NCBI GenBank assembly: GCA_964638715.1 | Contig: CAZWZF010000008.1 | Location: forward strand, 92,109-156,108 | Direction of reading: 5' to 3' | From: an uncultured bacterium | GTDB taxonomy: Bacteria; Armatimonadota; Hebobacteria; CAIYQO01 | DNA length: 64,000 nucleotides | Shown: positions 22,801 to 59,935 of the stretch, in pieces | Numbering within the stretch: position 1 is the stretch's first letter | How the letters are laid out: the number at the start of each line of letters is the position of its first letter | Program-made: the position numbers and the translations under genes | The notes under the pieces: model-generated | The model's database searches: none | Told to the model about the DNA's origin: nothing | What the model saw: only the letters and a program-made list of their open reading frames with translations

Positions 22801-25490
22801 ACAGTGACAGCGATGGCAGGATTTTGCAGTTTAGTCATTGGAATACCTGTCATCTGCGCAGTCAGAATCTCACCAACAACAAGCGGTTGTTTCAGGACAG
22901 TAATAAGAGTGTCACCATCATAAATTCGTGTTGTGAATGTATAATTTCCTGCTGCGGTGTCTGATGAAATTGATATTGGCAAATCAATATTGCTGACTTT
23001 ACCAACTTCAACATTAACTGTTTTTGTTTCTACTTTCGGCCAGGTTCCGTCTACCGTGGCGACAATCTTCGCGGTAAACGCTTTGTTGAATATTGCCGGC
23101 AATGTTAAAACTGCCTTACCTGATGACCCACGTGCTATTGATGGTAATATCAAACCACCATCAACAGATTTTAATATTCCGGTGGCGGTTTTCGCGTTAT
23201 ATAATCCTGTGACTTCTTTATCAAAAATCAATACCATCGGGTCAAGTGTGGCGACCACCATTGACGCACCGGCAGGGGTAATACGGTCGGTGCGACCATA
23301 AATATCCTGCATGGTATATTGCGCGTCCGCATTTACTGTGAATGTTGTTGGGGTACCAGGTTCACGCATATATAGATAACATATAGTCTTACCATCACGG
23401 GCGTAAACGTATGCAATTGTTTTATCAGTTGGTTGAAATGCCAATTTAAAATCCGCGCATTCTACTGCCTGTACAAAATTATAATACGCCATTGTTTTCA
23501 TCATTGGCATCAGTGACGCGCCGCGCTGGTCAGTACCAAAAGCACCGCGTCCCCAATTATTATCTTTTATACTATCCGCAACCCGTGGTCGGTCTACATA
23601 TTGCATCCACTGAAAACCATCACCGGGGAACTCGCCGCGTAGGATAGCGTTACTACCCAGGTTTGACCCGGCCTCATTAACATACATCAGGAAATAAGTT
23701 ATACGATACATGTCATGGGCATGGGCATCAAGCATTGATGTTATCAAGTCGCGACTGCTTTGCAACTGGTCATTACCACCAACAGCAGCAAACTCAGTTG
23801 ATATTAAATGACGTTCAATGCCCAGTTTTTTCAATTCCCTTTGTAATCTCTGCTGTCCATCCCACACAACTCCGGATTGATATACATGGGTATCAAAGAA
23901 ATCTGATACTTCATATAATTTTTCTTTTAATATCAGATTAACACCGTCATCGCCGGCATTAACACCCCAAACCATCATCCCTACCGGCAAATCGGGGAAC
24001 TCTTTTTTAATTGCCGCGTAGGCTTTTCTTTGTAGTTCCAGGGTGCGGGCATCAATAAAACGCTCTAATCCTGAAGGAACCACTTGGACGATACGATTTT
24101 TATTGGCGCGAATGTAGGCAACAATATATTCCACATAGCCATCTATCTCAAAACCTTTGCAACCGGGATGAAATGGGTCATCTATAATAGCCCAATCCGG
24201 AGCGTTTCTTGACATATCCCCCCATGGGTGATTTGGAGTTCTGCCGCGAATCTGTTCAAGGTTTGGACAATATACCATCTTGGGAAACTCTGGATCGGGT
24301 TTAATAGTTATCGGTCCGCCTTTCACGGGTTGCGCGTTTCTCCAACCATTATAATCCCAGTTATGCACTAAAGATGTGCCCATCTTATCCAACAGTGACT
24401 GCCCTTCATGCTTTGAATCACTATTCTTAAATCCCCCGCCTTCAGCAAAAGATATAAAACGGCATTTATCGTATTCATTTACCCCGGTTTTTCGCGGATT
24501 CACCACAGCATAAGTGATTGTGTCTTCAGCAATCACCTTGTCACCATCCAACAATTTTGCATTCAGGAAAAATTCACGCCCAACTTCTTTTGCTGATTCA
24601 TCAGCTATTAAAGTTGACAGACGCAAATTTTGTGTGCGTTTCGGGTCAAGATGCCGGTCAACAACCGGTGCCGCACCATCAAAAGCAATCTCGCCACTAG
24701 CAATTTTAAATTTCTCATAATCAGTTATTTCATACCGTATCACTGGCTTCTGTAGAGTTCCAATCGGCTTTTTATCATTGGCATACAATAAAAAGTCAAA
24801 TCTGAAAGGATCATCAGAAAAGAAAAGATTAGCGTTTTCCGCCGTACTGACTTCTAACGAATATCGGCTTGCGGCTGATGTTGTTTTTACCTGCGCAACA
24901 TTTGCTGCGACATCTGATACTGCTATGCGGACATCGGTGAAATAACATTCACCACGACTCATAGCCTTTGGCCAGCACAATCGCAAACGAAAAAAATCAC
25001 CAGTTACATTTTTAACAGCATTGTAATTTTTCCATAACAGACCTTCCTTTGTCATAGTGTGGCGAAATTGCGGTATTTGCCGTTTATCATCCCAGGGCAG
25101 CCAGGTCCAATCGCCGCCGTTATTTGCCAATTTACCATCTTTATCACAGGGGATAATTTCAAATGCGGCAGAATATGAAAAATCTTTCTGTGCGTCATAA
25201 TTATCCGCACCCCACAGACTGATCTTTACCGGCTTACCGGGATTTTTAAGTACCGGACTAAGCCAGGCGCTATCCGCCTCTTCGTCTTTTAATTGTTTTA
25301 TAAGCAGACTTTTACCACCGGCGCGCCGGGTGATATCAGAAACGGTGGCATTGTTCACCGCAGTCCAATCCTTGCCGCCATCAGCAAATGTGGTTTCGTA
25401 TAGAACTTCTGCCGCATTGCTTCCAACACCAGCTATTAACGTTACCATACATACCATAAACAGCCTCTTAATAAGATGATTAATACGCAT
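19881..25490 (-). CDS. Giant secreted multidomain protein (1869 aa). Contains a CBM9-like domain, a long coiled-coil segment and TIM-barrel-like regions. Function unknown.
   Basis: Signal peptide MRINHLIKRLFMVCMVTLIAGVGSNAA. Mid-region DLSDWNLDELIPIPY...WDDKKLYFAAEITDNVPV resembles CBM family 9. A KIEALKAADAELNAWAAKDQK...EIAKMRNE heptad-like stretch follows. AT-rich coding. First gene of the AT-rich block. Confidence 0.7.
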   Translation of the reverse strand: MRINHLIKRLFMVCMVTLIAGVGSNAAEVLYETTFADGGKDWTAVNNATVSDITRRAGGKSLLIKQLKDEEADSAWLSPVLKNPGKPVKISLWGADNYDAQKDFSYSAAFEIIPCDKDGKLANNGGDWTWLPWDDKRQIPQFRHTMTKEGLLWKNYNAVKNVTGDFFRLRLCWPKAMSRGECYFTDVRIAVSDVAANVAQVKTTSAASRYSLEVSTAENANLFFSDDPFRFDFLLYANDKKPIGTLQKPVIRYEITDYEKFKIASGEIAFDGAAPVVDRHLDPKRTQNLRLSTLIADESAKEVGREFFLNAKLLDGDKVIAEDTITYAVVNPRKTGVNEYDKCRFISFAEGGGFKNSDSKHEGQSLLDKMGTSLVHNWDYNGWRNAQPVKGGPITIKPDPEFPKMVYCPNLEQIRGRTPNHPWGDMSRNAPDWAIIDDPFHPGCKGFEIDGYVEYIVAYIRANKNRIVQVVPSGLERFIDARTLELQRKAYAAIKKEFPDLPVGMMVWGVNAGDDGVNLILKEKLYEVSDFFDTHVYQSGVVWDGQQRLQRELKKLGIERHLISTEFAAVGGNDQLQSSRDLITSMLDAHAHDMYRITYFLMYVNEAGSNLGSNAILRGEFPGDGFQWMQYVDRPRVADSIKDNNWGRGAFGTDQRGASLMPMMKTMAYYNFVQAVECADFKLAFQPTDKTIAYVYARDGKTICYLYMREPGTPTTFTVNADAQYTMQDIYGRTDRITPAGASMVVATLDPMVLIFDKEVTGLYNAKTATGILKSVDGGLILPSIARGSSGKAVLTLPAIFNKAFTAKIVATVDGTWPKVETKTVNVEVGKVSNIDLPISISSDTAAGNYTFTTRIYDGDTLITVLKQPLVVGEILTAQMTGIPMTKLQNPAIAVTVRSLSDTTMTGKVSIANKFFGADYEPSVMEQAYTVTPRGTTEIRFPISREQANLATSYEMRATIADKSGFNITCEDDVSFQASLKTNTPITVNGDLSDWNLDELIPIPYEKWYNGPRDPKEFSGKFYSRWDDKKLYFAAEITDNVPVVNGKEQLFWNDDNIMFCLYPWAWHMGESLNTGYYREHLGPIQGGKASFLRAGYVPSGPAMPDGAEIAVKRTDTGWIYEWAYTKASLYPIKLEKGGAFRLSMSVWDQHDTNKKTQEDWGKFSWLTFSGFNSSVNALPNLWRQFQMVDNTEALEAVWKSSVNKTAQQRQAIEKFALDGTCDNAVFTAKQAKYKGKIEALKAADAELNAWAAKDQKCIESQKLVADLDAEIAKMRNENKTETTDYKKIAQRRWQAFVDAQKVRNDHATPEHQQMREDINNMKSELIIDALYNLDTVPAVKTMTDKYRTSITEQQMALTAYNKERGMTTPIAYLQTQPKPYFKPGNKLPPLTRYGWVMPFELNKEFADNWGYALPSGGYLSSQRLKQIANPESDLAKTISLMKANPGKYKLEVTCDRFDPPNPPADLWTRDKDGILLNAQAKSLDGTEWHPGMNTVISPEVSDQYWIDAGAGRAKPIAEIRKLVPVSIILNGGEWGLGVWGFAGSVWMQDPKIKKAIDEYKAKGLSRIEYLDDKTGNAQKLIANEVKKAVPDRDLYVYYTSGGSGHKDRYWGWADWGPSYKPMRGVSDQPSIECYLHSMNTGFDGNQDLLSMSLNAIGQQLALGDTLSYNWFWAKRYDTSMRQYRGFLKCMYVMGTLGGNAGTYNQPDFNASFKLNTVPDWMMQQMALGHVHALFTHLEDYIRNGDLVDEGKYKHIWSVEQPAYELLPKELEKTVIAKGKVNVLPMGRPFRVVARKHRNKAEWLVEAWTADTKGGEDKQYDATVNIPGAGEITLKARVGGSTYLVSLADGKPVAKLLDPDEDNPSAGFKM

Positions 25491-28549: not shown

Positions 28550-29611
28550 TTATCTGATAATTAATTTACGCAATGCTTTGTCATTCACCCATCCCTGCGC
28601 ACTGGCGAACCAGAAACGGGTTTCGGAAGTTCCCTGTTTTAATAAATCACCGGCAAAATCAACGTAATCCGGATAATCTTTGTTCTCACCGAAAAGAAAT
28701 GGAATATATATTATATCATCACCAAATAGCCGATGAATTTCTTTAAACGGCGTAAATGGATAATGGAACTCCAGGCTGTGTATTTTTATTCCAGACTCTT
28801 TTAATGCCGGTAGATGTTGCGCATAACTGCCGCAGCAATGAATTTGTAAACCGCCGAACGCATCCGCAATTCGGCGCAGACAGGGAATCTCAAAATCACG
28901 GTAAATATCCGGACTGAGCAACGGCATCATATCCTGAGTCAGTGACGCTCCCAATTCCTCCGGTAAAAATGTATAGGGCCAAATGCTGCCGATAACTTTC
29001 CCACCACCTATTTCTTTGCGAAATCGTTTGTGATATTCAATCAATGTGGTAGTGATGGAATCCAACGCAGCGTGAATTGCATCCGGTTCCTCATACATGG
29101 TAATCATCAACTCAGTCTGCTCCATCACCAGTGCCAGTGTATTCATCGGTCCCTGAAAATCCGGGGTGCGGGTAAATATCGCGTCAGACTGTAATTTGTC
29201 ACAAACTAACCAGTATAAATCAACCGCCATTTTAAAATCAGAATCTTCATACGAACAAGCCTGTAATTTTGGGAGATCATTAACGTCATTAATTACCGAT
29301 TCTATATGCACCCCACCGCCTTCCGCGGGTGGTATCACCTTGCCGCCATACATTTTAGCGGTACTGATGGTGCCGAAATCCGGATATATCGCCGGTAATA
29401 TAAACTGCTCATCAGACTCAATGTCAGCACGAATGCATTCCGCGGCAGCAGTTGCCACTTCATCCAAATTGAAATGTTCACGATCCAACATTTGCCGGTA
29501 AGCCGGTGGAACAACCATGCTGACTATTGGCCCGGTGATTTCTCCCTGCCAATATGACCTATAATATTCCAGTGTTTCTTTATAATTTGCAATTTGGTTA
29601 ACGGCGGTCAT
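28550..29611 (-). CDS. Uroporphyrinogen decarboxylase (URO-D)-like family protein.
   Basis: Size ~350 aa. Motif LQIHCCGSY parallels the h-H-x-C-G motif seen in the three other URO-D-like ORFs at the right end (MFHSCGAI, FLHTCGPT, LHMHSGG). Confidence 0.6.
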   Translation of the reverse strand: MTAVNQIANYKETLEYYRSYWQGEITGPIVSMVVPPAYRQMLDREHFNLDEVATAAAECIRADIESDEQFILPAIYPDFGTISTAKMYGGKVIPPAEGGGVHIESVINDVNDLPKLQACSYEDSDFKMAVDLYWLVCDKLQSDAIFTRTPDFQGPMNTLALVMEQTELMITMYEEPDAIHAALDSITTTLIEYHKRFRKEIGGGKVIGSIWPYTFLPEELGASLTQDMMPLLSPDIYRDFEIPCLRRIADAFGGLQIHCCGSYAQHLPALKESGIKIHSLEFHYPFTPFKEIHRLFGDDIIYIPFLFGENKDYPDYVDFAGDLLKQGTSETRFWFASAQGWVNDKALRKLIIR

Positions 29612-29624
29612 ATTATCTCACTTT

Positions 29625-31151
29625 TTATAAATAATTCAGTTGATTTATTCCTGCCCGATATGCCGGACCTGCGGTATTTGATTCTTTACCATCTTCAACA
29701 GTCTTGTAATTATAAGGTTTATTTGCCCAGTCAACGGCAGGCCAAACGCTGACAACCCGGGTGGTGTCAATCAACCATTCCAATAAACGTTTTCTGCCTT
29801 CTGCTACCACATCGCGATAAGACAAGTTATCAAATAAATTGGTTGTTTCATTCGGATCAGTTCTAATATTATATAATTCGCCAAACTCTTCACCACCAAA
29901 CATTTGCGGTTGGTAATGCACCATTCGCCATTCATCCCAACGGATAGCCTTGCTCCAGGGATTTTCTGTTACCGCGACTGACCTGACCGAGGTTTCATCT
30001 CCACTTAATAAAGTGGAAATGTCTTTGCCATCCACAGTCTCCATTGCCGGTAATCCACACAACGCGGTTATTGTCGGGGTAAGGTCGATATTTTCTACTA
30101 ACTGATGACTTACATGCCCACCCTTTGTAACACCGGGAACGCGCCAGATATACGGAACACGACAAACAGCCTGAGAACAAATACCTGGTGCTTTTTCTGG
30201 AACGCCGAAAGTACCGGAATACGCGCCATGGTCACTGCCATAAATTACAATGGTATTATCCGCCAATCTGTTTTGGTCAAGGTAATCAAGAAGTTGACCT
30301 AACGCAAAATCAACCTGGGTTATACAAGCCAGATATCCATGCCACACCCGACGGCGAACGTTTTCTACACCTTTTGGATCAATTAACCCTTCCCACGTCT
30401 TACCACGCTGTACCATTTGCTGAAAATGCGGCGGACGTTTTGAGGTGTCCTGATTTATTGTCTCTGGTAATTCCAAATCATCAGGATACATGTCCCAAAA
30501 TATCTGATCGGGGGTATAACACTGATGTGGCCTGGGTAACGAAACCTGCATACAGAAAAGTTTACCGGCTTTTTGCGATTCACCCATAAACTCTATAGCT
30601 TTTTTTACACACCATCCTTCTACGCTGTGTTCATATGGTAATTGTGATGGTCGGGCTTCATCTTGTTGCGCACCACTGAACTCCGGCAAAGTAATGCTAT
30701 CTTCTTTATCGCGTATACCCAATTCCCGCAGATAATCAAAATATGCCGAACTATTACATTCAAACTTGCCACCGTAATTATATGACTCAGCATATAAATC
30801 TACCTGGTTTAGCAGCCAGTCCTGCGGGTCGTTCGGCGTATGCAGTTTACCAATACCAGCAGTCCGATATCCATTTGATTTAAAATGACCAAGAAAACCC
30901 GGCAAATGGTCAGGACTGGGACCGGATAAACCATAAATGCCGTGGTTGTGGCAATACTGCCCGGTAAAAAATGACATGCGACTGGGGGTACAGATAGGGT
31001 TTTGCGTATATGCATCGGTAAAACGCACCCCTTCAGCAGCTAACCTGTCCATATTAGGAGTAATCGCCTGCGGATGACCTTCGTAACCAGTACAGGCAGC
31101 CTGGTGTTGGTCAGATATTACAAATATAATATTATATGGTGTATTCGGCAT
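29625..31151 (-). CDS. Sulfatase (S1 family, Cys-type), no signal peptide.
   Basis: NIIFVISDQHQ...NPICTPSRMSFFTGQY. Confidence 0.9.
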   Translation of the reverse strand: MPNTPYNIIFVISDQHQAACTGYEGHPQAITPNMDRLAAEGVRFTDAYTQNPICTPSRMSFFTGQYCHNHGIYGLSGPSPDHLPGFLGHFKSNGYRTAGIGKLHTPNDPQDWLLNQVDLYAESYNYGGKFECNSSAYFDYLRELGIRDKEDSITLPEFSGAQQDEARPSQLPYEHSVEGWCVKKAIEFMGESQKAGKLFCMQVSLPRPHQCYTPDQIFWDMYPDDLELPETINQDTSKRPPHFQQMVQRGKTWEGLIDPKGVENVRRRVWHGYLACITQVDFALGQLLDYLDQNRLADNTIVIYGSDHGAYSGTFGVPEKAPGICSQAVCRVPYIWRVPGVTKGGHVSHQLVENIDLTPTITALCGLPAMETVDGKDISTLLSGDETSVRSVAVTENPWSKAIRWDEWRMVHYQPQMFGGEEFGELYNIRTDPNETTNLFDNLSYRDVVAEGRKRLLEWLIDTTRVVSVWPAVDWANKPYNYKTVEDGKESNTAGPAYRAGINQLNYL

Positions 31152-31163
31152 TATTAACCCCTT

Positions 31164-31391
31164 TTAAATAGCTGGTGGTGTTACCCATTCTTTATTTTTC
31201 TGGATTATAATGTTTTGTGATAATGCAAGCAAACGCGGTTCTAAGTCTGCAAAATCAAGTGTGTTTGGCTGAGTATCACCTTGTGCGCACATTGCCGCCA
31301 CGCAACCTGCCGGGCACCCGCCGCAGACTACGACATCATATTCACCGATTACGGGAATGCAGGACCGATAGTCGAGACTGTTAACGCTCAT
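31164..31391 (-). pseudogene. Chimeric remnant of a FAD-dependent oxidoreductase. The N-terminal ~30 aa (GEYDVVVCGGCPAG type) is joined directly to the C-terminal ~40 aa.
   Basis: Translation ...IPVIGEYDVVVCGGCPAGCVAAMCAQGDTQPNTLDFADLEPRLLALSQNIIIQKNKEWVTPPAI. The C-terminal part is near-identical to the end of ORF 33234..34544. Its DNA (31171-31302) is a ~130-nt direct repeat of 33231-33362. Confidence 0.6.
31171..31302. repeat. Direct repeat (~130 nt, about 90% identity by eye) of 33231-33362, the 3' end of the FAD-oxidoreductase gene.
   Basis: Both copies were aligned by eye. They bracket the GC-rich sulfatase plus gene fragments. Confidence 0.6.
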
Positions 31392-31409
31392 GACAATAAC
31401 TCCTTACAC

Positions 31410-32828
31410 TCAAAAGATATCTGTCTTCGTAGGCAGCGGTTCGGACTCAAGGATGAAGGACAGGAGGCGATCGCGCATCTCACGGACCACGTCTTGCCTG
31501 CCAGTGTCGGCCCATAGGTTGCGGAGTTCGCACGGATCGTTCCTGCGGTCATGCAACTCGCCGAACTCCTTGCCCTCGTAATGGACGAACTTCCAGTCGT
31601 CGGTAACAAGGCAACGCACGGCGGGCTCCCATAGGACACCGTCTTTTTGGTGGATATGCGAACCACGCCATTCTGTCAGCACCGCATCGCGTGCCGGCAC
31701 CGGACGAAGCGTACCCTCGCGACTGAACAGTGGCCGTCCCTGTTGCCGATGTGGCCCTTGAATCCCAGCGAGTTCGGCAACCGTAGGCGCAATATCTACT
31801 GATGATGCGAACCCTGTATCGATTGCGGCTGGCACCGCCATCACCTCTGGAAAGCGCCAGATCATCGGCACGCGGATCGACGGATCGAAGAACATCGGCC
31901 CCTTGAGGAGCATGCCGTGGTCACCGAGCAACTCGCCATGATCGGAGGTGAAGATGATCACAGTCGACTCCGCCAGCCCCTGGGATTCCAAAGCCTTCAG
32001 GATGCGGCCGACGGCGTCGTCGAGATGCGCCATCATGGCGTGGAACGCGGCAATAGTGCCACCCACGCGTGCCGGGTCGCGGCAGATGTCAGCGTAGTCC
32101 TTTCGTCGCTCTTTTGCATACGGCGTCATCAACTCCTCGCAGTCCCCGCTGATTGGCGCCGGCATGTCCTCGGCCCTGAACCGCGAGGCATACGGTTCAA
32201 CAGGATCGAATGGATGATGCGGGTCAAAGAAACCGACCGAGAGGAAGAACGGCTTGCCGTCCTCACGCCGCGCCTTGAAGTAGTCGCCGACGTGGTTTGT
32301 GATCCAAGTGTTCGGATGAAACTCCAGTGGGATGTCGCGCACATAGCGCTCGTAGTGGCCGCCAGCCTTAAACTGGGCCAAGTAGGATTCATACAGGCCA
32401 TGCTTCTCAATCCACTGAAAATACTCGTCCTTGCAGTAGGGGTCGCCCTCGCATTCGAGTAGCAGGTCGAAACCATACTTCGGGTGCGGCGTGTTGCGCA
32501 TCCAGATGTTGTCGAGGTGGATCTTCCCGATCAAGCCTGTGTGGTAACCGGCACCCTTCAGCCGAGTCTGGATCATGTCCGAATTCGGATCCAACGGCAC
32601 GCCATTCTGCCAGCAGCCATGGTGACTGGGATACTGGCCGGTGAACCAGGAAGCCCGTGCTGGCATGCACACCGGATTAGCGGTGAAACAACGGTCAAAG
32701 CGAACCCCGTCGGCAGCCAGCCGGTCGAGGTTCGGGGTCTGCGCTACCTCACAGCCATAGCAACCGAGACTGTCGAGACGCTGCTGGTCGGTATTGATAA
32801 AAAGGATGTTGAGAGGTGTGTCAGTCAT
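31410..32828 (-). CDS. Sulfatase (S1 family, Cys-type). GC-rich island gene inside the AT-rich block.
   Basis: NILFINTDQQR...NPVCMPARASWFTGQYPSHHG. Codon third positions are visibly G/C-rich, unlike flanking genes. Confidence 0.9.
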   Translation of the reverse strand: MTDTPLNILFINTDQQRLDSLGCYGCEVAQTPNLDRLAADGVRFDRCFTANPVCMPARASWFTGQYPSHHGCWQNGVPLDPNSDMIQTRLKGAGYHTGLIGKIHLDNIWMRNTPHPKYGFDLLLECEGDPYCKDEYFQWIEKHGLYESYLAQFKAGGHYERYVRDIPLEFHPNTWITNHVGDYFKARREDGKPFFLSVGFFDPHHPFDPVEPYASRFRAEDMPAPISGDCEELMTPYAKERRKDYADICRDPARVGGTIAAFHAMMAHLDDAVGRILKALESQGLAESTVIIFTSDHGELLGDHGMLLKGPMFFDPSIRVPMIWRFPEVMAVPAAIDTGFASSVDIAPTVAELAGIQGPHRQQGRPLFSREGTLRPVPARDAVLTEWRGSHIHQKDGVLWEPAVRCLVTDDWKFVHYEGKEFGELHDRRNDPCELRNLWADTGRQDVVREMRDRLLSFILESEPLPTKTDIF

Positions 32829-33093
32829 GTTCTGTACTCCTATGCGTAACAGGGAAACCTTTGGGCAACCCCATGCCAGGATGCGGCGGCGATAAGTGAT
32901 AAACGGATTGCCTCACCTTGGGGAAATTAACCCCGACGTGCCATAGTTGCCCCTGATTTTCCACCATTAGCAACTCCAGTCCGGTGCGCCGTGCTGACAA
33001 CGCAGTGGCACAGCCTGCAGGCCCGCCACCGCAGACGTCGACATCATATTCACCTATAACCTGACTATTTTTATCTAACAGTTTGTATTTCAT
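32821..33093 (-). pseudogene. N-terminal fragment (about 60 aa of homology) of a FAD-dependent oxidoreductase, then diverges and stops.
   Basis: VIGEYDVDVCGGGPAGCATALSARRTGLELLMVENQGQL matches the N-terminus of ORF 57802..59250 (ARDIPVFGEYDVVVCGGGPAGCAAALSARRSGMSVLIIESQGQL). Confidence 0.55.
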
Positions 33094-33152
33094 TTTATTT
33101 ATGTGACAGTGTGATGCAAAAAATTACGTATCGAAAAAATTCGAAACGATCG

Positions 33153-33233
33153 CATCTTACCATTCTACCTTTTTACCAAAGTTTTTCTTAGCTACTTTAT
33201 TAAACTCAGTGCCTGCGGCATTAATAACCTCTT
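33153..33233 (-). pseudogene. 3'-end fragment of an RraA-like gene (encodes ...FGKKVEW*), duplicated from the 59186..59935 gene end.
   Basis: About 75 nt at roughly 90% identity by eye to 59181-59255. It lies immediately upstream of the FAD-oxidoreductase fragment, the same gene order as at 59.2 kb. Confidence 0.45.
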
Positions 33234-34544
33234 TTAAATATTTGGCGGTGTTACCCATTCTTTATTTTTGCGGATTATAATGTTTTGTGGCGGTGCAAGC
33301 AAACGTGGTTTAATGTCTGCAAAATCAAGGGTGTTTGGCTGAGTATCGCCTTGTGCGCACATCGAGCCTGCCACACCTGCCGACTGTCCAATTTGCGCCA
33401 GGATACATTGCACCCGGTATGATGCCATCGCCAGATGAGTACCACTCATATGCTTACCGACCACCATTATGCCGTCATAATCACGTGGAATAAGTGAACG
33501 ATATGGTATGCCATAAGGCTGCGGTTCCGGGAAATCTGACATTCCTTTTACCTTTTCGCTCCAAATATCCACACTGCGCTGAGTAACATGCACGCTGTCA
33601 TCCGGCACAATACCATTAAAGATATCTTCACTGGTAATTACCTTTTCTCCCATTATACGCCATTGTTCCCGCACCCCAAGTTTTGGAGCAAGATGAACCG
33701 CGTAACCATTTTTTCTCAATAAGATAATATCTTCACTCATCATATTCAGAGCTTCCCGTTGCGCGGTTGCCAATATTCCCGGTTCGCGGGTATCAGCACA
33801 TCGCACTTTGCATCCCCAATGCAGATAAGCACCAATATTTCGTTCTTTCAATCCTTCTATATCGCCTTTAGGCCAACCCTCACCGGATTCCAGTGGAAAA
33901 GAGAGCTTTAATTGACGGAAATCAAAATGCGGTACATTACCGATTTTCTGGCTAATATATTTCCACGTGCATAATTGTACATGGTCAGTGCGTTCCATAG
34001 GAGCAACACCTTCGCCAAAATCGTCCCTGCTGTCTTCGCCATAACGTCCATCCATACCAGAATTAACGCAAAGATTGCCGACACCGGTCGCTTCAATGGT
34101 GACTTTCGCTTTTATCTGCTGTTCTTTGCCGTCCGCACCACGCCAGATCGCGCCAGTCACCCGGCGGCGATTACCGGCATCTTCCACCATCAGCCTTTCT
34201 ACCCGTACCCCACAACGAACAGTGATATTTTTTTCTGCCGTCAGCATTCGTGACAGTACCATCAGATAATCACCGGGCATATACCAAAAGTCCCACCATC
34301 TACCCGGTTTGCGCTCTGTCAGCGGATAGTTCTTGTCCAACTCATTGCATAACTCGGTAATTACACCTGACCGTGGACCGCCATCAAGCATCAGAACATA
34401 TTGATCCATTGCCGCGCCGCCGGGAACCGCGTCCTCTTCCAATAAAATTACTGATGCTCCGGCACGCGCCGCGCCAATTGCCGCCGGCCAACCCGCAGCA
34501 CCGGCACCTATAACTAAAACATCTGTTTCGACTATTGTATGCAT
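33234..34544 (-). CDS. FAD-dependent oxidoreductase (GxGxxG Rossmann N-terminus; PF12831-like family).
   Basis: DVLVIGAGAAGWPAAIGAARAGASVILLEED (dinucleotide-binding motif). C-terminal ...AQIGQSAGVAGSMCAQG parallels ...TGQAAGTAAALS in the right-end paralogs. Confidence 0.8.
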   Translation of the reverse strand: MHTIVETDVLVIGAGAAGWPAAIGAARAGASVILLEEDAVPGGAAMDQYVLMLDGGPRSGVITELCNELDKNYPLTERKPGRWWDFWYMPGDYLMVLSRMLTAEKNITVRCGVRVERLMVEDAGNRRRVTGAIWRGADGKEQQIKAKVTIEATGVGNLCVNSGMDGRYGEDSRDDFGEGVAPMERTDHVQLCTWKYISQKIGNVPHFDFRQLKLSFPLESGEGWPKGDIEGLKERNIGAYLHWGCKVRCADTREPGILATAQREALNMMSEDIILLRKNGYAVHLAPKLGVREQWRIMGEKVITSEDIFNGIVPDDSVHVTQRSVDIWSEKVKGMSDFPEPQPYGIPYRSLIPRDYDGIMVVGKHMSGTHLAMASYRVQCILAQIGQSAGVAGSMCAQGDTQPNTLDFADIKPRLLAPPQNIIIRKNKEWVTPPNI

Positions 34545-34547
34545 AAA

Positions 34548-36863
34548 TTATTCCCTGAAAGTAAGTGGTGAAAAATCATTAAGGTTTGAATTAAATCCGG
34601 TATTTTTAGCATTCAGTTTCTGATCTTCCCGTATGCTATCTGTACCACGTGCATTATCACTCATGCGGTTGCGGGTTATTTGGCAGAACCATGTTACACC
34701 AGTGCCACAACGAATATTTTCGCCTAATGCTTTGAAAGGTACAAATACTTCCATCATCCAGCAACCAACCCCAACTTTGGTAGCAACCTTTAACCCCTCT
34801 GCGTTCCACGAATAGGACCCATTTTTAATATCTTGTACTGCACCATTTGCATTAATTACAAATTGTGCAAAATCACCAATATTTTTACCACTGGTATCCA
34901 GATATAATTCTATGCCATCATCCCAATATGTCAAACCATGATCATTAGTTTTTACATCACGTTTTAATTTATCAGGTGATGGTTCAGTCATTTTGAAGCT
35001 GAATGAAATTCCATCAAGAGTAAATACGGATCGTACTTCAGTGGAATATTTGCATGCGACTTCTTTTCCACCCTCATTTTTCATCAATATTACAGGTTCG
35101 GCTTTCTGCCATACAACATCATCAAGATTTCCGTCAATTACCGGGTTAGCGGCTACCTTAAAAGATTTTATAGTTCGCTGACCTTCACCTTCCATAACAG
35201 CGGCATATTCTTTAAAAAAATCATCAAAGGGATATGAAAAATATGCCAACCGTTTAGTTGCCAACGCATCAGGTGCAGCCTCTGTTTTCGCCTGCGCAAG
35301 AAGTTGTTTGAACTGTTCAACTACTGATTTAGGATATGAAATAGTATAAACAGATTTCGGTGCAAGCCTACCACCCGGCCAGCGGCTTTTTTCCCAACCA
35401 TCCATTTGCAGTTGTACTATTTTACGTACTGTATCGGCAGCAGGACCATACATTCGCTTGCAATATTCGTCAATTGAAGCATCAACATCAAAATCCGGAT
35501 TCCACAACACCTTGAGCCAGGTATAAAGCGATATATGGAATCGCGGCCATTCATCAGGATCACCACCATTAATGAATGTGCCAACAGTTTTATCTCGATT
35601 AGCCTGATAAAAATCTTTTAACACATGCGCGTAAATATATGGTGCCATGGTTCTGTCCGCAGGCCAACAGGAATAGTGCCAATCCTGCATTTTTTGCCCG
35701 GTAGCAGCAATCCAACTATCGATATTTGCCTGGTCAGCAGCAAGAATTGAAGGTTCTTTATACTGGGCAATACCGGGCATTCCACAAATCTGCATCTGCA
35801 CATTATTTGGCAACTTCACTCCTGCAGGTGCCATGGTATAATTCATATATGCTAGAAATATTATAGTCTTGCCGGGGTATTTTACTTTTACTTCATTCGC
35901 TAATTTCGTTGCAAAAGTAGTCATTATCAAAGATGCTGACGACAGGTCTCCACCTGCTTTGTTAAACAATTTTTTACATTCTTCACATTGGCAATTAACC
36001 CCAATATCCGGTGGTGACAAGGTAATTGCGTCACCGGCAATGAATGATGCATTTTTCTTCCCCGAATAATGGTCATCTATATTTTCCATAAATGTTTGCA
36101 GTGTTTTAGGGTTTGAATAACAATACATTGAAAAATCACGGGTACCATCAGGATTAAGCTGGAATATTTCTGGTCTATTTGCACGATACTCAGCATTGCG
36201 CGACCATTCCATAGGTTGGTGAACGCGCAAGTCAACAGGCCAGGAATTACCGGCGCGGAGTGTCATCAATAATGGTCGCAGTTCCTGATTCGCACCACCG
36301 ATTGGACCGGATGGAACAAATGGAGGAAAATACTGGCGTTTGCGAAATACCGGAGCATCAGTATACCAAAGCGGATCTATCACCAATTTATCTGTTTTTA
36401 TTATAGAACGACCATCACGATCAGTTGGCCAATACCAGCGTACCCCGACAACTCGTTCCAGAAAATCATAAACTCCCCAGATCGATCCGACAATAAAAAC
36501 ACCATCTGCCGTTGTTTTCAATTCAAAACCTTCGGGTGGCAATCCGGCAGATACCAGCCCGACAGTCTTTGCTTCCGGGCAATCCCCTAATATTATAGCA
36601 GGAAATATAACTTTTCCCTGCAATATCGGCAGAATCACACCCGTAGTTTCTTTAATGCAGCTTTGCATTTCATTAACAGTCTGATTAAATTCTGGAGACA
36701 TAACGCAAATAGAGAAACTGGATTTACCATCATCAGTCAACACTAATGGTTTATGTACCGGTTTCATCGTAACAGGCATCAAATCATTCCCTTTTACAGC
36801 AGCGTGACAAAATGTCACAAGACCAACCATCAACAAAATTATAAACTTTTGCATCATAAACAT
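34548..36863 (-). CDS. Secreted DUF4838-like domain protein with C-terminal CBM9-like carbohydrate-binding module.
   Basis: Signal peptide MFMMQKFIILLMVGLVTFCHAAV. N-domain resembles the N-domains of 1639..5244 and 37083..40622 (VGVRWYWP, CQCEECKKL vs CHCPACRKL). C-terminus VIDGNLDDVVWQKAEP...GIELYLDTSGKN is CBM9-like. Confidence 0.65.
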   Translation of the reverse strand: MFMMQKFIILLMVGLVTFCHAAVKGNDLMPVTMKPVHKPLVLTDDGKSSFSICVMSPEFNQTVNEMQSCIKETTGVILPILQGKVIFPAIILGDCPEAKTVGLVSAGLPPEGFELKTTADGVFIVGSIWGVYDFLERVVGVRWYWPTDRDGRSIIKTDKLVIDPLWYTDAPVFRKRQYFPPFVPSGPIGGANQELRPLLMTLRAGNSWPVDLRVHQPMEWSRNAEYRANRPEIFQLNPDGTRDFSMYCYSNPKTLQTFMENIDDHYSGKKNASFIAGDAITLSPPDIGVNCQCEECKKLFNKAGGDLSSASLIMTTFATKLANEVKVKYPGKTIIFLAYMNYTMAPAGVKLPNNVQMQICGMPGIAQYKEPSILAADQANIDSWIAATGQKMQDWHYSCWPADRTMAPYIYAHVLKDFYQANRDKTVGTFINGGDPDEWPRFHISLYTWLKVLWNPDFDVDASIDEYCKRMYGPAADTVRKIVQLQMDGWEKSRWPGGRLAPKSVYTISYPKSVVEQFKQLLAQAKTEAAPDALATKRLAYFSYPFDDFFKEYAAVMEGEGQRTIKSFKVAANPVIDGNLDDVVWQKAEPVILMKNEGGKEVACKYSTEVRSVFTLDGISFSFKMTEPSPDKLKRDVKTNDHGLTYWDDGIELYLDTSGKNIGDFAQFVINANGAVQDIKNGSYSWNAEGLKVATKVGVGCWMMEVFVPFKALGENIRCGTGVTWFCQITRNRMSDNARGTDSIREDQKLNAKNTGFNSNLNDFSPLTFRE

Positions 36864-36920
36864 GTTATGTTTCCTTTTAATACCTATTTCAATATTTAAA
36901 ACCAGGAAATTACTAATTCG

Positions 36921-36992
36921 TAGAGGCTTTTGCTAAACCTTGATGGGACAGACACCTTCCTGGCTTCGCCATTCGGTGTCAGCCCCTGATTT
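36921..36992. repeat. ~72-nt conserved intergenic element, copy A, with internal dyad GACACC...GGTGTC. Candidate structured RNA, REP/MITE-like element or bidirectional terminator.
   Basis: tagaggcttttgctaaaccttgatgggacagacaccttcctggcttcgccattcggtgtcagcccctgattt versus copy B at 52287-52358, about 85% identical by eye. Confidence 0.5.
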
Positions 36993-37046
36993 ATACTCGA
37001 TTTTTAATTTAGATCAATAAAAAATTAGGTTTTACAACAGCCTGCG

Positions 37047-37082: not shown

Positions 37083-40000
37083 TCACTTCGGTCCCAGCGC
37101 GTTAACCACACACCGGAAACCTGTTGGTGTCCAGTCTCGCACATGTGGCGGATTAATAAACCTGGCGGCGGTACGACTTAATCTTTCATCATACAGGGAA
37201 CATCCGCCACGCAATACTTTGTGACTGCCAATTGCCGGACCGGTCGGATTTTTTGATGGTGATGATTTATAATATTCATAACCATACCAATCTGCTACCC
37301 ATTCCCATACGTTGCCGGCCATATCCATCACGCCATAAGGACTGGCCCCCTGCGGGTAACTTCCTACCGGACGGAAACCGGATGAAAACTTATACAAAGT
37401 CTCTTCCATGGATACACATTTTGTAGAATCCCATTTGTTGCCCCATGGATATTCACGACCATCAGTACCACGGGCAGCTTTTTCCCATTGTGCCTCGGTG
37501 GGTAACGCGGCGCCAACCGCTTTCGCGTAAGTATCGGCTTCATACCAACTCATCTGCACCGCATACGCACCTTCATCACCTTTGGGGTCAGCATACATTC
37601 CCTGTCCCCAAGTTGGAGTAAATGTTTTACCGGTTGCGTCGCAATATTTCTTGTATTGCGCGACTGTTACCGGATATTTATACATCCAGTAACCATCCAA
37701 ATAAATTTTTCGCTGTGGTCGTTCATCACCAGCACCTTTGCCATTGGGTGAACCACGCAGAAAATCACCCGCAGGTATCCAGATTAATTCCGCGCCATCC
37801 AATTCATTAACTGCCGTTGTTGTACTGGTAATTTTTATTTTAGGCGCAAATAACACTGCAGTCGTTTCAACAGTTGCGGTAGTAACCTGTTTTGCAACTG
37901 GAACAGTTTTGGCACTCAATACCTGAACCGGTAAATTTACTTCCGTCGCATCTTTTGCCGCAGAGGTGCCAATTAATGTTATCTGTAAATATGCTTTATC
38001 AACTACCGGTTTTAATTCGACAGCGTCCCAGCCATTAGCCGAAGTTGTAATAACCGCAGCAACACCATCACCACGGTCAAGTTGAATAACGATATCTCCA
38101 GTGGAGTTGGCAGTTATAGGAATATTGACCGGTTCCGCGTCAGAAACAGCAATAACATCATCAAACTTCTGGTCCATCGCATCCAAACCGGGTAATCTTT
38201 CTCCAGCTTTCATTCCTTTTATTCCGCCCGGTACAGCATATTGCAAGTCCAGCAACTTTGTGATGCCACCGCCGGTCACTGCGACTTTCGCAACCTTCGG
38301 GTTTGGCAACGCGAGCATCCATCGGGTAGTAAATCGGTTTGTTACAGCCAGACTGCCATTATATTTTCGATCAATCTGCATTCCAGTATCAGTAGTGCTT
38401 ACTACTCTATTCAGGTGATTTTTAGTATCAAATCCATAAAAAGGCTGGGAAAGGGTAAGGTCTGTTTCTAATTTATCTTTATTCGGATTTTGGAATTCAC
38501 TCCACACTGACGACCAGTCTTTATCAGAAATATTAGGGTATTTCAAATCATTTTTTGCTACATCTGCCGGCAGCCATATCATTGAACTAATTCTGGCAAA
38601 CTGGTCAAGATATCCGGCCTGTCCACCCTGAACCGCAAGTAATTCTTTCCCACTTTTTTTATCTATCGCGCTGGTGACTTGTCCTTTCAAATCAGGACAT
38701 ACCGCCACTGACATTGATTTTCCATCCAGTTCCACTACTGGTCCGCCGTTATTGGCAACATACCATGATATGGTGCGCAATACCCCGGCTTCACCGCCGC
38801 CATTCATGAAAGCGGCTTTTTTGGCACGGTCAAGACAACCAGGCACATTCGGGTCAGCACCGGCAACATACCATTTTTTATTATCTGCCGCATATTTCAC
38901 CATTCCCCAAGGATTACCGCTGTAAGACGCCGCATTTAGCGTAACCGCATCCAAAGAGCTTCCCCGCGCCTCTATCATATTGGCAAGCAAACGTTTATCT
39001 TCTTCTTTTTCTGCCGCTGCCAGTGCTTTATCCATTGCCACTGTCATTTTGGCTAATATAGTTGGTGAAAACATCTTCACGCGTGTTGTCGTGGTCCATC
39101 CGCTCCAGCGTACCGCACTGGGAACATGACCGCTGTCAGCATAGGCAGCCTGCGCAAGTTTCAGATACTCCCAAACATAAGGTGCTGCACCTTTACCATA
39201 ATTATCATCCAGGAACTGGCGAATAAGTTTATCAGCATCCTGGTCGGGGTTCCAGGCGAGTTTTAAATAAACCCATGAATACAGCCATTGCCAGTTATCA
39301 CTGCATAACTGCGGATTTGTGCCATAAATTCCGCATTCTTTCCAATATTTCATAATGTCGCTGAGGTAGAAAATCGCTGGCCATTCCGGTTGGTAAGGAA
39401 CCCAATGCCAGGTGGTTACCCGTCCGGGAGCGATTTTTGGCCATTCTTTCAGTGCTTTCGCGTAATCACGGTTTGCCGGGTTATTGGTAATCGGTCCTAC
39501 CTGGTCACCCGCCATATTCTGCGATCGCGCGCTTGATACCACATTAATCCACAGATTTTTATTGGGTTTAATAGTCTTTGGCGCATCAAGAGAGTCAAAA
39601 TATGCGAATGTGATTACCTGCTGGTCCGGGTCGGTCTTTTCTAAATCTTCCAACGCGCGGTTAAGCATCAGTATTAACGGTGCCGCCTCAGATTGTTCAT
39701 CATGCACTAACTTGCGGCAATTATCGCACATACACCCGGTAAAACCATCACCCTGGGCAGCAGGAATCGGCATTGCCGGATCAAATTTTGCCCCCATCTG
39801 TTTTTTTCTTATAGCAATCTGTTTTCGCAATGCATCCGCCAAGAATTTTGGCAAATCCGGATTTGTTCCGCATACACCCATACTCCATGGCGTCTCGCGC
39901 TGACCGGCTTTATTTAAAGGGTAAAAATCAGGATGTTCAGCAAACAAACCTTTTTCAGTAATATTTCCTTTGCCATCTTTCTTATCCTGTGGCGGCAATA

Positions 40001-40622
40001 AATCATAAAAATTATGTCCGGCGCCAAGATCACCGCTTACAGTATTGGCAGGATAACCCGCTCCACGATTCTGCAATATCCACGGGTAACTACCCATCCA
40101 GAAGATAAAACCGCGTTGAGCAAATGCAGGTTGCTGAAAATCATCAACATTTTTTATTGACAATGTCGTTTGTTTTGGCACTACTTCATGCCCCGGACCC
40201 CCGTATGACAATCCTTTCGCCTTAAAAGTGTAAAAACGACAGCCAAGATGATCTTCCAATAAACCCCATACCGCATATTGTATTCCAAGGTCTGATAAGG
40301 CCGAGAGAATTAATTTATCGCCATCAGTTCTGATACGATAGGCCTGTTTCCCCTTCGCGTCATCACTTGCACCGGGTAGTTTATCAACTTTTTCTATAAT
40401 GATAACTGCTTTATCCCGCAATTCGTCAGTCATCGATGCTGCCAATGGTAATTCAGCACCGGTAATCTGCTTCAGATATGACTGCAGATTTTTGGCAGGC
40501 TGCAAAAAACCATTGTGAACAATAGTCGCCTTAGTCACACCATTTTCAGCAAGCGTAATTGCCTGGGTGCTGATTACAAGGCAAAGTAACAGAAATACTA
40601 CCATCGCTTTACAAGTTGACAT
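37083..40622 (-). CDS. Large secreted DUF4838-like::FGE-sulfatase-domain fusion protein. AT-rich paralog of 1639..5244.
   Basis: Signal peptide MSTCKAMVVFLLLCLVISTQA. Collinear similarity to 1639..5244, including the C-terminal SUMF1-type motifs GNVWEWVADWY, RGGCSLYDERLSRTAAR and GFRCVVNALGP. LacI-type palindrome 18 nt upstream of the start. Confidence 0.8.
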   Translation of the reverse strand: MSTCKAMVVFLLLCLVISTQAITLAENGVTKATIVHNGFLQPAKNLQSYLKQITGAELPLAASMTDELRDKAVIIIEKVDKLPGASDDAKGKQAYRIRTDGDKLILSALSDLGIQYAVWGLLEDHLGCRFYTFKAKGLSYGGPGHEVVPKQTTLSIKNVDDFQQPAFAQRGFIFWMGSYPWILQNRGAGYPANTVSGDLGAGHNFYDLLPPQDKKDGKGNITEKGLFAEHPDFYPLNKAGQRETPWSMGVCGTNPDLPKFLADALRKQIAIRKKQMGAKFDPAMPIPAAQGDGFTGCMCDNCRKLVHDEQSEAAPLILMLNRALEDLEKTDPDQQVITFAYFDSLDAPKTIKPNKNLWINVVSSARSQNMAGDQVGPITNNPANRDYAKALKEWPKIAPGRVTTWHWVPYQPEWPAIFYLSDIMKYWKECGIYGTNPQLCSDNWQWLYSWVYLKLAWNPDQDADKLIRQFLDDNYGKGAAPYVWEYLKLAQAAYADSGHVPSAVRWSGWTTTTRVKMFSPTILAKMTVAMDKALAAAEKEEDKRLLANMIEARGSSLDAVTLNAASYSGNPWGMVKYAADNKKWYVAGADPNVPGCLDRAKKAAFMNGGGEAGVLRTISWYVANNGGPVVELDGKSMSVAVCPDLKGQVTSAIDKKSGKELLAVQGGQAGYLDQFARISSMIWLPADVAKNDLKYPNISDKDWSSVWSEFQNPNKDKLETDLTLSQPFYGFDTKNHLNRVVSTTDTGMQIDRKYNGSLAVTNRFTTRWMLALPNPKVAKVAVTGGGITKLLDLQYAVPGGIKGMKAGERLPGLDAMDQKFDDVIAVSDAEPVNIPITANSTGDIVIQLDRGDGVAAVITTSANGWDAVELKPVVDKAYLQITLIGTSAAKDATEVNLPVQVLSAKTVPVAKQVTTATVETTAVLFAPKIKITSTTTAVNELDGAELIWIPAGDFLRGSPNGKGAGDERPQRKIYLDGYWMYKYPVTVAQYKKYCDATGKTFTPTWGQGMYADPKGDEGAYAVQMSWYEADTYAKAVGAALPTEAQWEKAARGTDGREYPWGNKWDSTKCVSMEETLYKFSSGFRPVGSYPQGASPYGVMDMAGNVWEWVADWYGYEYYKSSPSKNPTGPAIGSHKVLRGGCSLYDERLSRTAARFINPPHVRDWTPTGFRCVVNALGPK

Positions 40623-42848: not shown

Positions 42849-42853
42849 CTTTC

Positions 42854-42881
42854 GTAGAGACGCATGGCCGTGCGTCTCTAC
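42854..42881. repeat. Hairpin repeat GTAGAGACGCA-TGGCCG-TGCGTCTCTAC (11-bp perfect arms) in the 29-nt gap between GH31 stop and next start.
   Basis: Read directly. The right arm contains the GH31 stop codon. Second copy at 45326-45353. Confidence 0.6.
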
Positions 42882-45292: not shown

Positions 45293-45325
45293 AAAATTAA
45301 ATCCCTGATTTATACATATTTTTTC

Positions 45326-45353
45326 GTAGAGACGCAAAATCTTGCGTCTCTAC
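45326..45353. repeat. Second copy of the hairpin repeat, GTAGAGACGCA-AAATCT-TGCGTCTCTAC, upstream of the GH31 gene. A partial third right arm (CGTCTCTACAG) sits at 45388-45399.
   Basis: Read directly. Arms identical to the 42854 copy, spacer differs. Confidence 0.6.
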
Positions 45354-45393
45354 AGAACAGATATTATTTTTGACTATCGCAAAATAGACGTCT

Positions 45394-46353: not shown

Positions 46354-46389
46354 AAAATTTCCTCCTCAAAGAAATATGAACGATAATAA

Positions 46390-47403: not shown

Positions 47404-47431
47404 AATAAATACCCCCTTAATAAAAATATTT

Positions 47432-47445
47432 TGTTAACGTTAACA
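47432..47445. promoter_or_regulatory. Candidate LacI-family operator TGTTAACGTTAACA (perfect 14-nt palindrome), 29 nt upstream of the 46390..47403 start.
   Basis: Read directly. Followed (minus sense) by AAGGGGGT Shine-Dalgarno and ATG. Confidence 0.6.
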
Positions 47446-47587
47446 GAATATTGCTAATATTAATTATACCACTGTGTTTGTATGGTGTAAATAGGAATTT
47501 AAAAGAATTTAAAAATAAAAAATCGGGGTGGCTTGCACACCTTAATAGGCAATAGAGCCACCCCTAAATAATTGTATTCGATTCAGA

Positions 47588-59185: not shown

Positions 59186-59935
59186 TTACCATTCTCCCTT
59201 TTTACCAAAGTTTTCTTTAGCTGCTTTGTTAAACTCAGCGCCTGCGGCATTAATTCTGTTTAATATTTCTTCAACAGTGCATCCTGCGGCACCACGTGCT
59301 GCCGGAATTACTGTATTGCATTCGTTGCTGTCCATAAACTTTGCCGCTTCCAATAATCCGGATTCGTCTTCATGTGGAATAACCAGAAATCCATGTTTAT
59401 CTGCATGAATAAGTTGTCCTGGTTTCACTGTTCTGCCAAAAACTTCCACTTCGCAGTTCCAATGTACCGGACATGAAAAAGAATGACCTACGCATAACCT
59501 GCGCGCAATTGCTTTAAATCCGGCGTTATTCATCTCGTCGAGATCCCGGATAGCTCCATCGGTAATAGTACCAACACAACCCAAGGCGCGGTGAATATTA
59601 CTGTTTACTTCACCCCAGAAAGCACCAATTACGTTTGGCTTGTCCATATCTTGAACAACTACAATCTTTGGTCCCGGTATGCTGGCAATATATGTGCGAT
59701 ATTCACTCCAGGCATTGGGATTGTCATGCGGATGCTTCGGATTGCTTGGCTCGAATTGCACCGTCGCCGCGTAGCCGACCATCGGTCCCATTTGTGGCAT
59801 AAAGTCGCGACATTCCTCGATATTAAAACCTTCTTTAGAAATATCGTGACTGGTTATTTGTTCCCAACCATTATAGATGGTCGGGGTATTCCAGCGTTTT
59901 AGCTGGAGAAGTTCTGCATGGGTTAACATAATCAA
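59186..59935 (-). CDS. RraA-like protein (RraA / 4-hydroxy-4-methyl-2-oxoglutarate aldolase / oxaloacetate-decarboxylase fold family).
   Basis: VVVVQDMDKPNVIGAFWGEVNSNIHRALGCVGTITDGAIRDLDEM, the characteristic G-x-x-x-DG-x-x-RD region of RraA-family proteins. Lower GC than its neighbours. Confidence 0.7.
   Translation of the reverse strand: MIMLTHAELLQLKRWNTPTIYNGWEQITSHDISKEGFNIEECRDFMPQMGPMVGYAATVQFEPSNPKHPHDNPNAWSEYRTYIASIPGPKIVVVQDMDKPNVIGAFWGEVNSNIHRALGCVGTITDGAIRDLDEMNNAGFKAIARRLCVGHSFSCPVHWNCEVEVFGRTVKPGQLIHADKHGFLVIPHEDESGLLEAAKFMDSNECNTVIPAARGAAGCTVEEILNRINAAGAEFNKAAKENFGKKGEW

Follow-up and report, generated by a model that had tools for sequence, protein, structure and literature searches.

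Homology-facilitated illegitimate recombination in transformable bacteria has been shown by experiment to integrate foreign DNA through joints of 3-10 bp, as outlined in PMC6382021 (de Vries & Wackernagel 2002; Prudhomme 2002; Meier & Wackernagel 2003), and double illegitimate recombination is credited in PMC12359135 to Hulter & Wackernagel 2008. Here we analyse what appears to be such a case in the genome of an uncultured bacterium of the Armatimonadota (contig CAZWZF010000008.1, positions 92,109 to 156,108; this whole stretch of 64,000 nucleotides is referred to as the window). A sulfatase gene of foreign composition sits, among gene fragments and between two direct repeats, in the gap between a gene for a FAD-dependent oxidoreductase (FADox) and a second sulfatase gene (sulfatase-2), and we assign a probability of about 0.75 to its having arrived by an element-free illegitimate insertion that duplicated the target. 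A second class of rearrangement, fork stalling and template switching (FoSTeS) or microhomology-mediated break-induced replication (MMBIR), yields duplications with templated insertions at the breakpoint, and has been described mainly in eukaryotes and in stress-induced amplification in E. coli.

The locus shares features with both. As in illegitimate integration, its joints appear to lie at short identity (7-13 nt), no dedicated recombinase is involved, an accessory gene was gained beside conserved genes, and the later spread to another filled lineage (L023/L024, below) would have used flanking homology, as in transformation-type exchange. However, here both joints are illegitimate, the target is duplicated over 150-167 nt and not deleted, and the inserted patchwork includes a 73-nt piece from 26 kb away in the same genome. 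As in FoSTeS/MMBIR, the inserted sequence stands exactly at the duplication joint, short same-strand segments are templated by nearby loci, and there is apparent microhomology or homeology at the joints; in contrast to it, the sulfatase is foreign, so that at least one step needs incoming DNA, and the mechanism is read from the scar alone.

All genes in this part of the window are on the minus strand, and gene order therefore runs from high to low coordinates. From 5' to 3' we find the intact FADox gene, the tail of an RraA-like gene, a 59-nt spacer, a 90-aa open reading frame (ORF), the sulfatase, an 18-nt spacer, a 75-aa ORF (the stub) and sulfatase-2 (Table 1). A scan of one genome per species uncovered the empty site. 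It lies in a Lake Mendota metagenome-assembled genome (MAG) labelled Armatimonadota, with 43% GC (L018, JBIJDE010000089.1, the same contig as L026), which aligns to the window at 88% identity in two stretches, 43.8 kb to 33217 and 31299 to 29051. The one FADox 3' end that it has (10527-10682) aligns to both repeats, R1 and R2. In L018/L026, sulfatase-2 follows FADox at a distance of 15 nt, as it does on a second contig (JGI 3300059473), which comes from another sample. Since this FADox/sulfatase-2 junction is uninterrupted, it is the window lineage that carries an insertion, which bears out the preliminary description of the locus as a recombination scar that delivered the sulfatase. More distant FADox orthologues (P0124 and P0126, 74-77% aa identity) are not followed by sulfatase-2, so that the adjacency can be traced within the close clade only. 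An exact-pattern scan of JGI metagenome contigs for the repeat core gave no match, in a collection that apparently holds no relevant samples.

Self-BLAST aligns 31146-31312 with 33216-33382 as a direct repeat of 85.3% identity over 170 columns (E = 7e-50). The repeat unit passes the FADox stop codon by 18 nt and reaches the start codon of sulfatase-2. As judged from the alignments, R1 and R2 are a duplication of the local target, that is, of the 3' end of the gene at 33234-34544 plus 18 nt; the period of the insertion is 2070 nt, of which ~1.9 kb is new sequence, and the target duplication measures 150-167 nt. Self-alignment recovered every element of the preliminary description at slightly shifted coordinates. 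The repeats, placed there at 31171-31302 and 33231-33362, do lie at these positions but extend further on both sides, and the proposal that the flanking FADox 3' ends are remnants of a copy of the cluster at the right-hand end of the window gives way to a duplication of the local target, the gene at 33234-34544 being of a different FADox subfamily from the right-hand genes.

Owing to the duplication, FADox retains a complete 3' end and stop codon, and sulfatase-2 its native ribosome-binding site (RBS) and start codon. The ratio of nonsynonymous to synonymous substitution rates (dN/dS) is 0.06-0.07 for FADox against both L023 and L018, and 0.059 for sulfatase-2 against L018: both flanking genes are under strong purifying selection. 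Target duplication can in this way protect both neighbour genes during an illegitimate insertion. R1 and R2 differ by 12-15% in the window, where the longest identical run is 23 nt; in L024 it is 92 nt, which is consistent with gene conversion between the repeats. From their arrangement, excision or amplification through R1/R2 would be possible in principle, and excision in the window lineage would be handicapped by the 12-15% divergence. More than ten assemblies of this lineage are all filled, with no alternative structure at the repeats.

Junction 1 coincides with the patch ATTAATGCCG (33216-33225) at the end of R1. On the minus strand R1 reads ...AAAAGAGGTT ATTAATGCCG CAGGCACTGAG, the target reads ...AAAAGAGGTT GATAATGCCA AACTC in L018 and ...GGGGTT AATAATGCCG AATAC in R2, and the RraA-like gene reads ...AACAGA ATTAATGCCG CAGGCGCTGAG. 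R1 agrees with the target through GAGGTT and with RraA from ATTAATGCCG on, and TAATGCC(G) is common to donor and target. At junction 2 (~31291-31303, GCGTGGCGGCAAT) the N-terminal and C-terminal FADox homologies overlap. The stub reads GGGTGCCCGGCAGGTTGCGTGGCGGCAATGTGCGCACAAGG; it tracks the FADox N-terminal consensus through ...GCGGCAGCAAT and then follows the target from about GCGTGGCGGC, the target being GGCGTGGCGGCGGCTATGTGCGCGCAAGG in L018 and GCGGCAGCAATGTGC in R1 of L024. The codons of the N-terminal FAD motif PAGCxAA resemble those of the C-terminal motif SAGVAAxM at this site, and the peptides concerned, PAGCVAA and SAGVAAA, are encoded by similar DNA; the donor is known here from paralogs only. 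Both junctions thus appear to fall in short microhomology patches, with crossover points that are approximate, as they are read from diverged present-day sequences.

The sulfatase stands out by composition. It has 58.8% GC, and its GC content at third codon positions (GC3) is 0.71, against 0.373 +/- 0.044 in the 15 surrounding low-GC genes, a distance of 7.7 standard deviations. The closest homologue (P0001, on the 62% GC contig L015) is 93% identical in protein and 89% in nucleotide sequence, with similarity confined to the ORF, and further relatives, at 75-84% aa identity, come from 66%-GC contigs and a Lentisphaerae MAG. Such a pattern is what horizontal acquisition from a GC-rich relative leaves behind. 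GC3 of the GC-rich relatives is 0.83-0.91, and the lower value here may reflect a degree of amelioration or an intermediate donor. The GC-richer leader upstream probably arrived together with the gene. No FADox gene neighbours the sulfatase at six homologous loci (L015, L016, L017, L027, L028 and L029). On L015 the gene next to the sulfatase is 67-69% identical to its homologue in the window; an 1869-aa protein without a Pfam match (19881-25490 of the window) has its L015 homologue (~67-69% nt identity) directly downstream of the closest sulfatase homologue. On L027 (region 2500-3063), from activated sludge, a homologue with 75% aa identity is situated upstream of a Y1 transposase gene of the IS200-like type, at a distance of ~350 nt.

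The encoded protein has the hallmarks of an S1 formylglycine sulfatase: a full PF00884 domain (169.6 bits against a cut-off of 25) with an SGSH_C-like C-terminal domain, a Cys-type maturation motif of the CxPxR kind (C54-M-P-A-R58 in the translation), conserved DQ, GKxH, HHP, SDHG and LKG motifs, likewise read in the translation, and a gene with a formylglycine-generating enzyme (FGE) domain nearby. Fusion proteins that carry an FGE-sulfatase domain are encoded at 37083-40622 and 1639-5244, the nearer one ~4 kb off. The sulfatase differs from the characterised members in having no signal peptide, and is presumably cytoplasmic. The nearest solved structures, 4upl, 2vqr and 2w8s (sulfatase/phosphonate monoester hydrolase group) and 7oz8 (choline-sulfatase), cover several specificities. 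An AGGAG RBS precedes the ATG by 8 nt, and dN/dS is 0.065 against L015, at a synonymous divergence of 0.54, and 0.18 against L023; with its motifs intact, the sulfatase is predicted to be functional cargo. The surrounding cluster encodes, according to Pfam, six sulfatases, a PL8 lyase, a heparinase II/III-like protein, GH29 and GH31 enzymes, DUF4838 proteins, pseudopilin-like DUF1559 proteins, and LacI and AraC regulators. It is a sulfated-glycan utilisation cluster, and what it gained is one more sulfatase, presumably a cytoplasmic one.

Around the sulfatase, the insert is a patchwork of gene pieces. The RraA tail is identical to the RraA-like gene at 67 of 73 positions (92%) in an ungapped core (33153-33225 against 59182-59254), within a wider self-BLAST match (33153-33243 against 59182-59268). 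To the RraA genes of a sister lineage (L039/L040) its identity is ~80%, and where these have GCTGCTGGC, GCTGCAAA and TTCGGC, the tail has the bases specific to the window lineage, GCCGCAGGC, GCAGCTAA and TTTGGT. Because it shares these bases, the tail was copied from the lineage's own right-hand cluster, 26 kb away on the same strand, an origin that the preliminary description had already suggested. That description also saw in the succession of RraA end and FADox start a reproduction of the junction in the right-hand cluster, where the FADox gene at 57802-59184 starts 1 nt past the RraA-like stop codon (TAAGATG). The gene order is indeed the same, but the homology ends right after the ATG that follows the RraA stop codon. 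Beyond it, the 59-nt spacer has no counterpart either within the window or among the fetched loci. One promoter-like hexamer pair, a single one, lies at 33120-33092; a promoter/terminator scan found no more sites than in shuffled sequence, and we therefore make no claim of a promoter supplied by the fragments.

Two further pieces derive from FADox N-termini. One follows the 59-nt spacer, begins MKYKLLDKNSQVIGEYDVDV and supplies codons 1 to ~56 of the 90-aa ORF (32926-33093), including the GGGPAG FAD-binding motif. This ORF is FADox-like over residues 12-56 only, with 67% identity to FADox 57802-59184, and matches PF12831 over profile positions 1-34. Spacer and FADox fragment have a host-like GC content of 41%. 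A word-indexed search returned no close intact source for the N-terminus, and in an exhaustive search of 1.84 billion representative proteins the best matches had 60-66% identity; as this library is clustered at 50% identity, it may hide a close source. The ORF overlaps the start of the sulfatase by 8 nt. We considered whether it is kept for translational coupling and set the idea aside; the sulfatase owns its AGGAG site. The other piece adjoins the sulfatase, begins MSVNSLDYRSCIPVIGEYDV and forms the start of the stub, in which 26 FADox N-terminal codons (IPVIGEYDVVVCGG...) continue in frame into the final 49 codons of a FADox like the one encoded at 33234-34544 (39 of 51 residues, or 76%, match residues 386-436 of that protein). 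The match of this second N-terminus to 53739-53806, at 84% identity, is restricted to the conserved box. Compared with the FAD-binding box of the four right-hand FADox genes, both N-termini show 66-89% identity (71-84% in the nucleotide matches confined to the box) and no homology outside the box. They are accordingly paralog-level relatives of genes in the window and, contrary to what the preliminary description implied, not copies of them.

The stub is decaying: between the window and L024 it has accumulated 15 nonsynonymous and 7 synonymous changes (dN/dS 0.59), some of which affect its GxGxxG motif, in agreement with the decayed state originally ascribed to the fragments. The region of the 90-aa ORF differs by 3 substitutions only between the two filled lineages, and it and the RraA tail are too similar between them for an estimate of selection. 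All three fragments, the RraA tail and the ORFs of 90 and 75 aa, are likely to be non-functional debris.

Table 1. Features of the filled site and the source of the RraA tail, in 5' to 3' order on the minus strand; coordinates refer to the window.
Feature	Coordinates	Strand	Evidence or remark
FADox (FAD-dependent oxidoreductase), intact, 436 aa, upstream target gene	33234..34544	-	PF12831, E = 1.5e-68
Repeat R1, last 149 nt of FADox plus 18 nt downstream	33216..33382	-	blastn; alignment to the empty site
RraA tail, probable pseudogene fragment: last 22 codons, stop, one G, ATG of the next gene	33153..33225	-	
AT-rich 59-nt spacer, upstream of the FADox N-terminal fragment	33094..33152	-	
90-aa ORF, probable pseudogene fragment: FADox N-terminus plus out-of-family read-through	32821..33093	-	
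GC-richer (54%) leader, ~125 nt, upstream of the sulfatase	32829..32954	-	direct reading of the sequence
S1 sulfatase, intact, 472 aa	31410..32828	-	PF00884, E = 1.3e-49
75-aa chimeric pseudogene (stub)	31164..31391	-	second FADox N-terminus (31313-31391) in frame with R2
Repeat R2, second target copy	31146..31312	-	3' end holds native RBS and ATG of sulfatase-2
Sulfatase-2, intact, 508 aa, downstream target gene	29625..31151	-	PF00884, E = 5e-43
RraA-like gene, source of the tail fragment	59186..59935	-	PF03737, E = 1.5e-22

A second filled lineage, represented in three JGI samples (L023, L024 and L025), has the same architecture and the same joints. Identity of L023/L024 to the window is 85-93% in the DUF4838 and FADox genes and 89% in R1, rises to 96.6-100% from 33245 to ~31500 (a 1.75-kb core), and then falls to 91% in the 3' end of the sulfatase, 92% in the stub and 88% in R2. 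Synonymous divergence (dS) between the window and L023 is 0.055 in the sulfatase and 0.60 in FADox. Non-coding and pseudogene sequence is as conserved as the rest of the core, so that constraint at the protein level cannot explain the identity. The flanks of L023 group with the empty-site L018 (92.6% identity), and between 36.7 and 33.45 kb site patterns favour pairing L023 with L018 in almost all 150-nt bins; in R1 L023 groups with the window, and directly downstream of the stub stop codon it is, like L024, L018-like again. Read together, these alignments indicate that the core was exchanged recently between the lineages by homologous recombination. The pattern would be akin to gene-specific sweeps, or to introgression of accessory genes among closely related populations, with a 1.75-kb sulfatase tract at 98-100% identity between flanks at 85-93% and a ten-fold lower dS; it differs from them in comprising only three haplotypes.

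The history that we favour would begin with FADox, 15 nt and sulfatase-2. In an ancestor of the window lineage, a patchwork of ~1.9 kb would have been joined into this site by illegitimate recombination, most likely by template switching during replication or by a double illegitimate join. This patchwork would have comprised the lineage's own 73-nt RraA tail, an N-terminal piece of a FADox paralog, the foreign sulfatase and a second such N-terminal piece. The first joint would exit the target at TAATGCC(G), just beyond the FADox stop codon, and the last would re-enter it ~150-167 nt upstream of the exit, in PAGCVAA/SAGVAAA-like DNA; re-entry upstream of the exit leaves the target stretch on both sides of the insert as direct repeats. 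A duplication with filler at its joint, taken with short identities at the joints and a same-strand source of filler at a distance of 26 kb, is what template switching produces. Within the insertion history, a single template-switching event is the enzymology we prefer, tentatively and at somewhat less than even odds: an identical scar would result from a pair of illegitimate joins on sister copies, or from a circle that was formed by such joins and then integrated. The joining enzymology and the order in which the pieces were assembled are what we infer from this scar. The insertion would have arisen once, in a window-like lineage, and the window-type RraA tail points the same way; it would then have entered an L018-like backbone by homologous recombination, with a more recent re-exchange of the core. 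The direction of this transfer is inferred and not shown.

Several observations weigh against this history. The donor order RraA, FADox-a, sulfatase, FADox-b occurs in no genome searched, and with the donor not found and the sources of the spacer and FADox pieces not located, one step cannot be told from successive events. The microhomologies are read from sequences that have diverged by 8-15% since the event, which makes the crossover points uncertain; the AT at 33224-33225 is of the RraA type, and a crossover upstream of it would leave little strict microhomology. Finally, stub and R2 are 88-91% identical between the filled lineages, against ~99% for the core, so that at least two exchange events are needed.

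A Campbell-type integration is an unlikely substitute. A circle carrying the patchwork and one ~160-nt copy of the FADox 3' end and sulfatase-2 5' end would, by a single homologous crossover, leave the insert between two direct copies of the segment that circle and target share, and copies from two diverged genomes would differ as R1 and R2 do. However, the circle itself would require the same two illegitimate joints, so that the problem is only moved, and no plasmid, phage or integrative-element genes lie nearby. The R1 and R2 copies of both filled lineages have 14 derived positions in common with respect to L018, and these shared states are explained equally well by a later duplication within the lineage.

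Rather improbable, too, is an ancestral filled structure, common to the three lineages, from which the empty site of L018/L026 arose by a precise R1/R2 deletion. Direct repeats of ~160 nt are able to support such a deletion, the L024 repeats with their 92-nt identical run look homogenised, and in its flanks the filled L023 resembles the empty L018 more (92.6%) than it does the window (~89%). Against this, 14 of 149 positions set the single copy in L018 apart from the four repeat copies, and this single copy is only 81-85% identical to R1/R2 of L024, well under the 92.6% of the flanks, whereas the L024 repeats are nearer to those of the window (88-93%). Together with the switch of L024 to L018-like sequence straight after the stub, this pattern fits import of insert and repeats into an L018-like backbone and not loss; the deletion would also cost one event more than the insertion history.

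Delivery by a transposon, an insertion sequence (IS) or an integron-like cassette, with the repeats as target-site duplications or attachment sites, is effectively refuted. It could draw on the flanking direct repeats and on the Y1 transposase gene 350 nt from the distant homologue on L027, but Pfam scans that covered the insert and all 37 large ORFs of the window identify neither a transposase nor an integrase, and there are no terminal inverted repeats, the best pairs being internal and 72-76% complementary. Target-site duplications made by transposases are 2-14 bp long, and a duplication of 150-167 nt is ten-fold above this. The ends of the insert are pieces of housekeeping-type genes, and its region matches no Rfam family or other structured RNA/DNA family.

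An assembly or sequencing artefact, for which repeats and a GC jump would be typical, can be dismissed, since at least ten independent samples processed with different assemblers (L001-L014, from ENA, Logan and the NCBI MAG GCA_037131695.1; SRR12676992, SRR7053533 and ERZ4201038 are examples of samples with the window lineage) are 99.98-100% identical to the window over the 8 kb from 29001 to 37000, and the divergent lineage in three JGI samples has the same architecture with substitutions of its own. Nor are the fragments frameshifted intact genes, the reading that the preliminary description had named as fatal to its own: they fall short by ~360-390 codons each, with no room for them.

What we describe is a well-documented new instance of a known process, and no new mechanism or kind of element. 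It is an unusually complete record of an accessory catabolic gene entering an operon-like cluster without a mobile element, comprising a filled site, an empty site, both joints, one filler source and a near-relative of the foreign gene. Through such events, the sulfatase repertoires of uncultured freshwater polysaccharide degraders would turn over.

A second recombination breakpoint is seen at the RraA stop codon and the ATG of the next gene (59173-59184; loci L037-L041). Sister contigs match the window at 89% identity as far as 59173, their next FADox is 69% identical to 57796-59133, and they carry a BNR/sialidase-like gene (371-393 aa) absent from the window. The conserved FAD-binding N-terminal box of FADox occurs in six copies in the window, with 66-84% identity. 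It is conceivable, though doubtful, that FADox genes act, through this box and a similar C-terminal motif, as portable recombination handles that time and again capture sulfatases and shuffle them between clusters and lineages, with repeats that permit reversible loss. If this were true, sulfatase content would be a fast-switching trait at the population level, and the breakpoint at 59173-59184 would be another product of the same process.

GC3 varies in blocks along the window: genes at 1.6-18.4 kb have values of 0.63-0.79, those at 18.4-53.9 kb 0.30-0.46, those at 53.8-57.8 kb 0.62-0.67 and those at 59.9-64 kb 0.57-0.71, with the low-GC RraA-like gene (0.39) in between. By this mosaic, the GC-rich sulfatase is one of several compositionally foreign genes in the window. 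Two pairs of paralogs combine a GC-rich and a GC-poor member: the DUF4838-FGE fusions at 1639-5244 and 37083-40622 (61% and 46% GC, 72-76% nt identity over >2 kb) and the adjacent FADox genes at 53836-55272 and 52436-53878 (60% and 44% GC, 74-77% identical). Such pairs suggest repeated import of homologous genes from GC-rich relatives.

Several intergenic sequences recur in the window. A hairpin, GTAGAGACGCA...TGCGTCTCTAC, follows two glycoside-hydrolase-type genes (42836-42882 and 45308-45354) and looks like a terminator or a repetitive extragenic palindromic (REP) element, and a 58-nt sequence is found at 36935-36992 and, 15 kb apart, at 52300-52357 with 86% identity. A 43-nt element with the palindrome TGTTAACGTTAACA lies upstream of pseudopilin-like (N_methyl/DUF1559) genes at 47405-47447 and 49949-49991; it could be a candidate operator for the LacI-family regulator encoded at 50082-51290. 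The region 45394-49950 encodes four tandem pseudopilin-like paralogs with an N-terminal methylation motif and DUF1559, which have a conserved 5' segment of 139 nt in common (70-83% identity).

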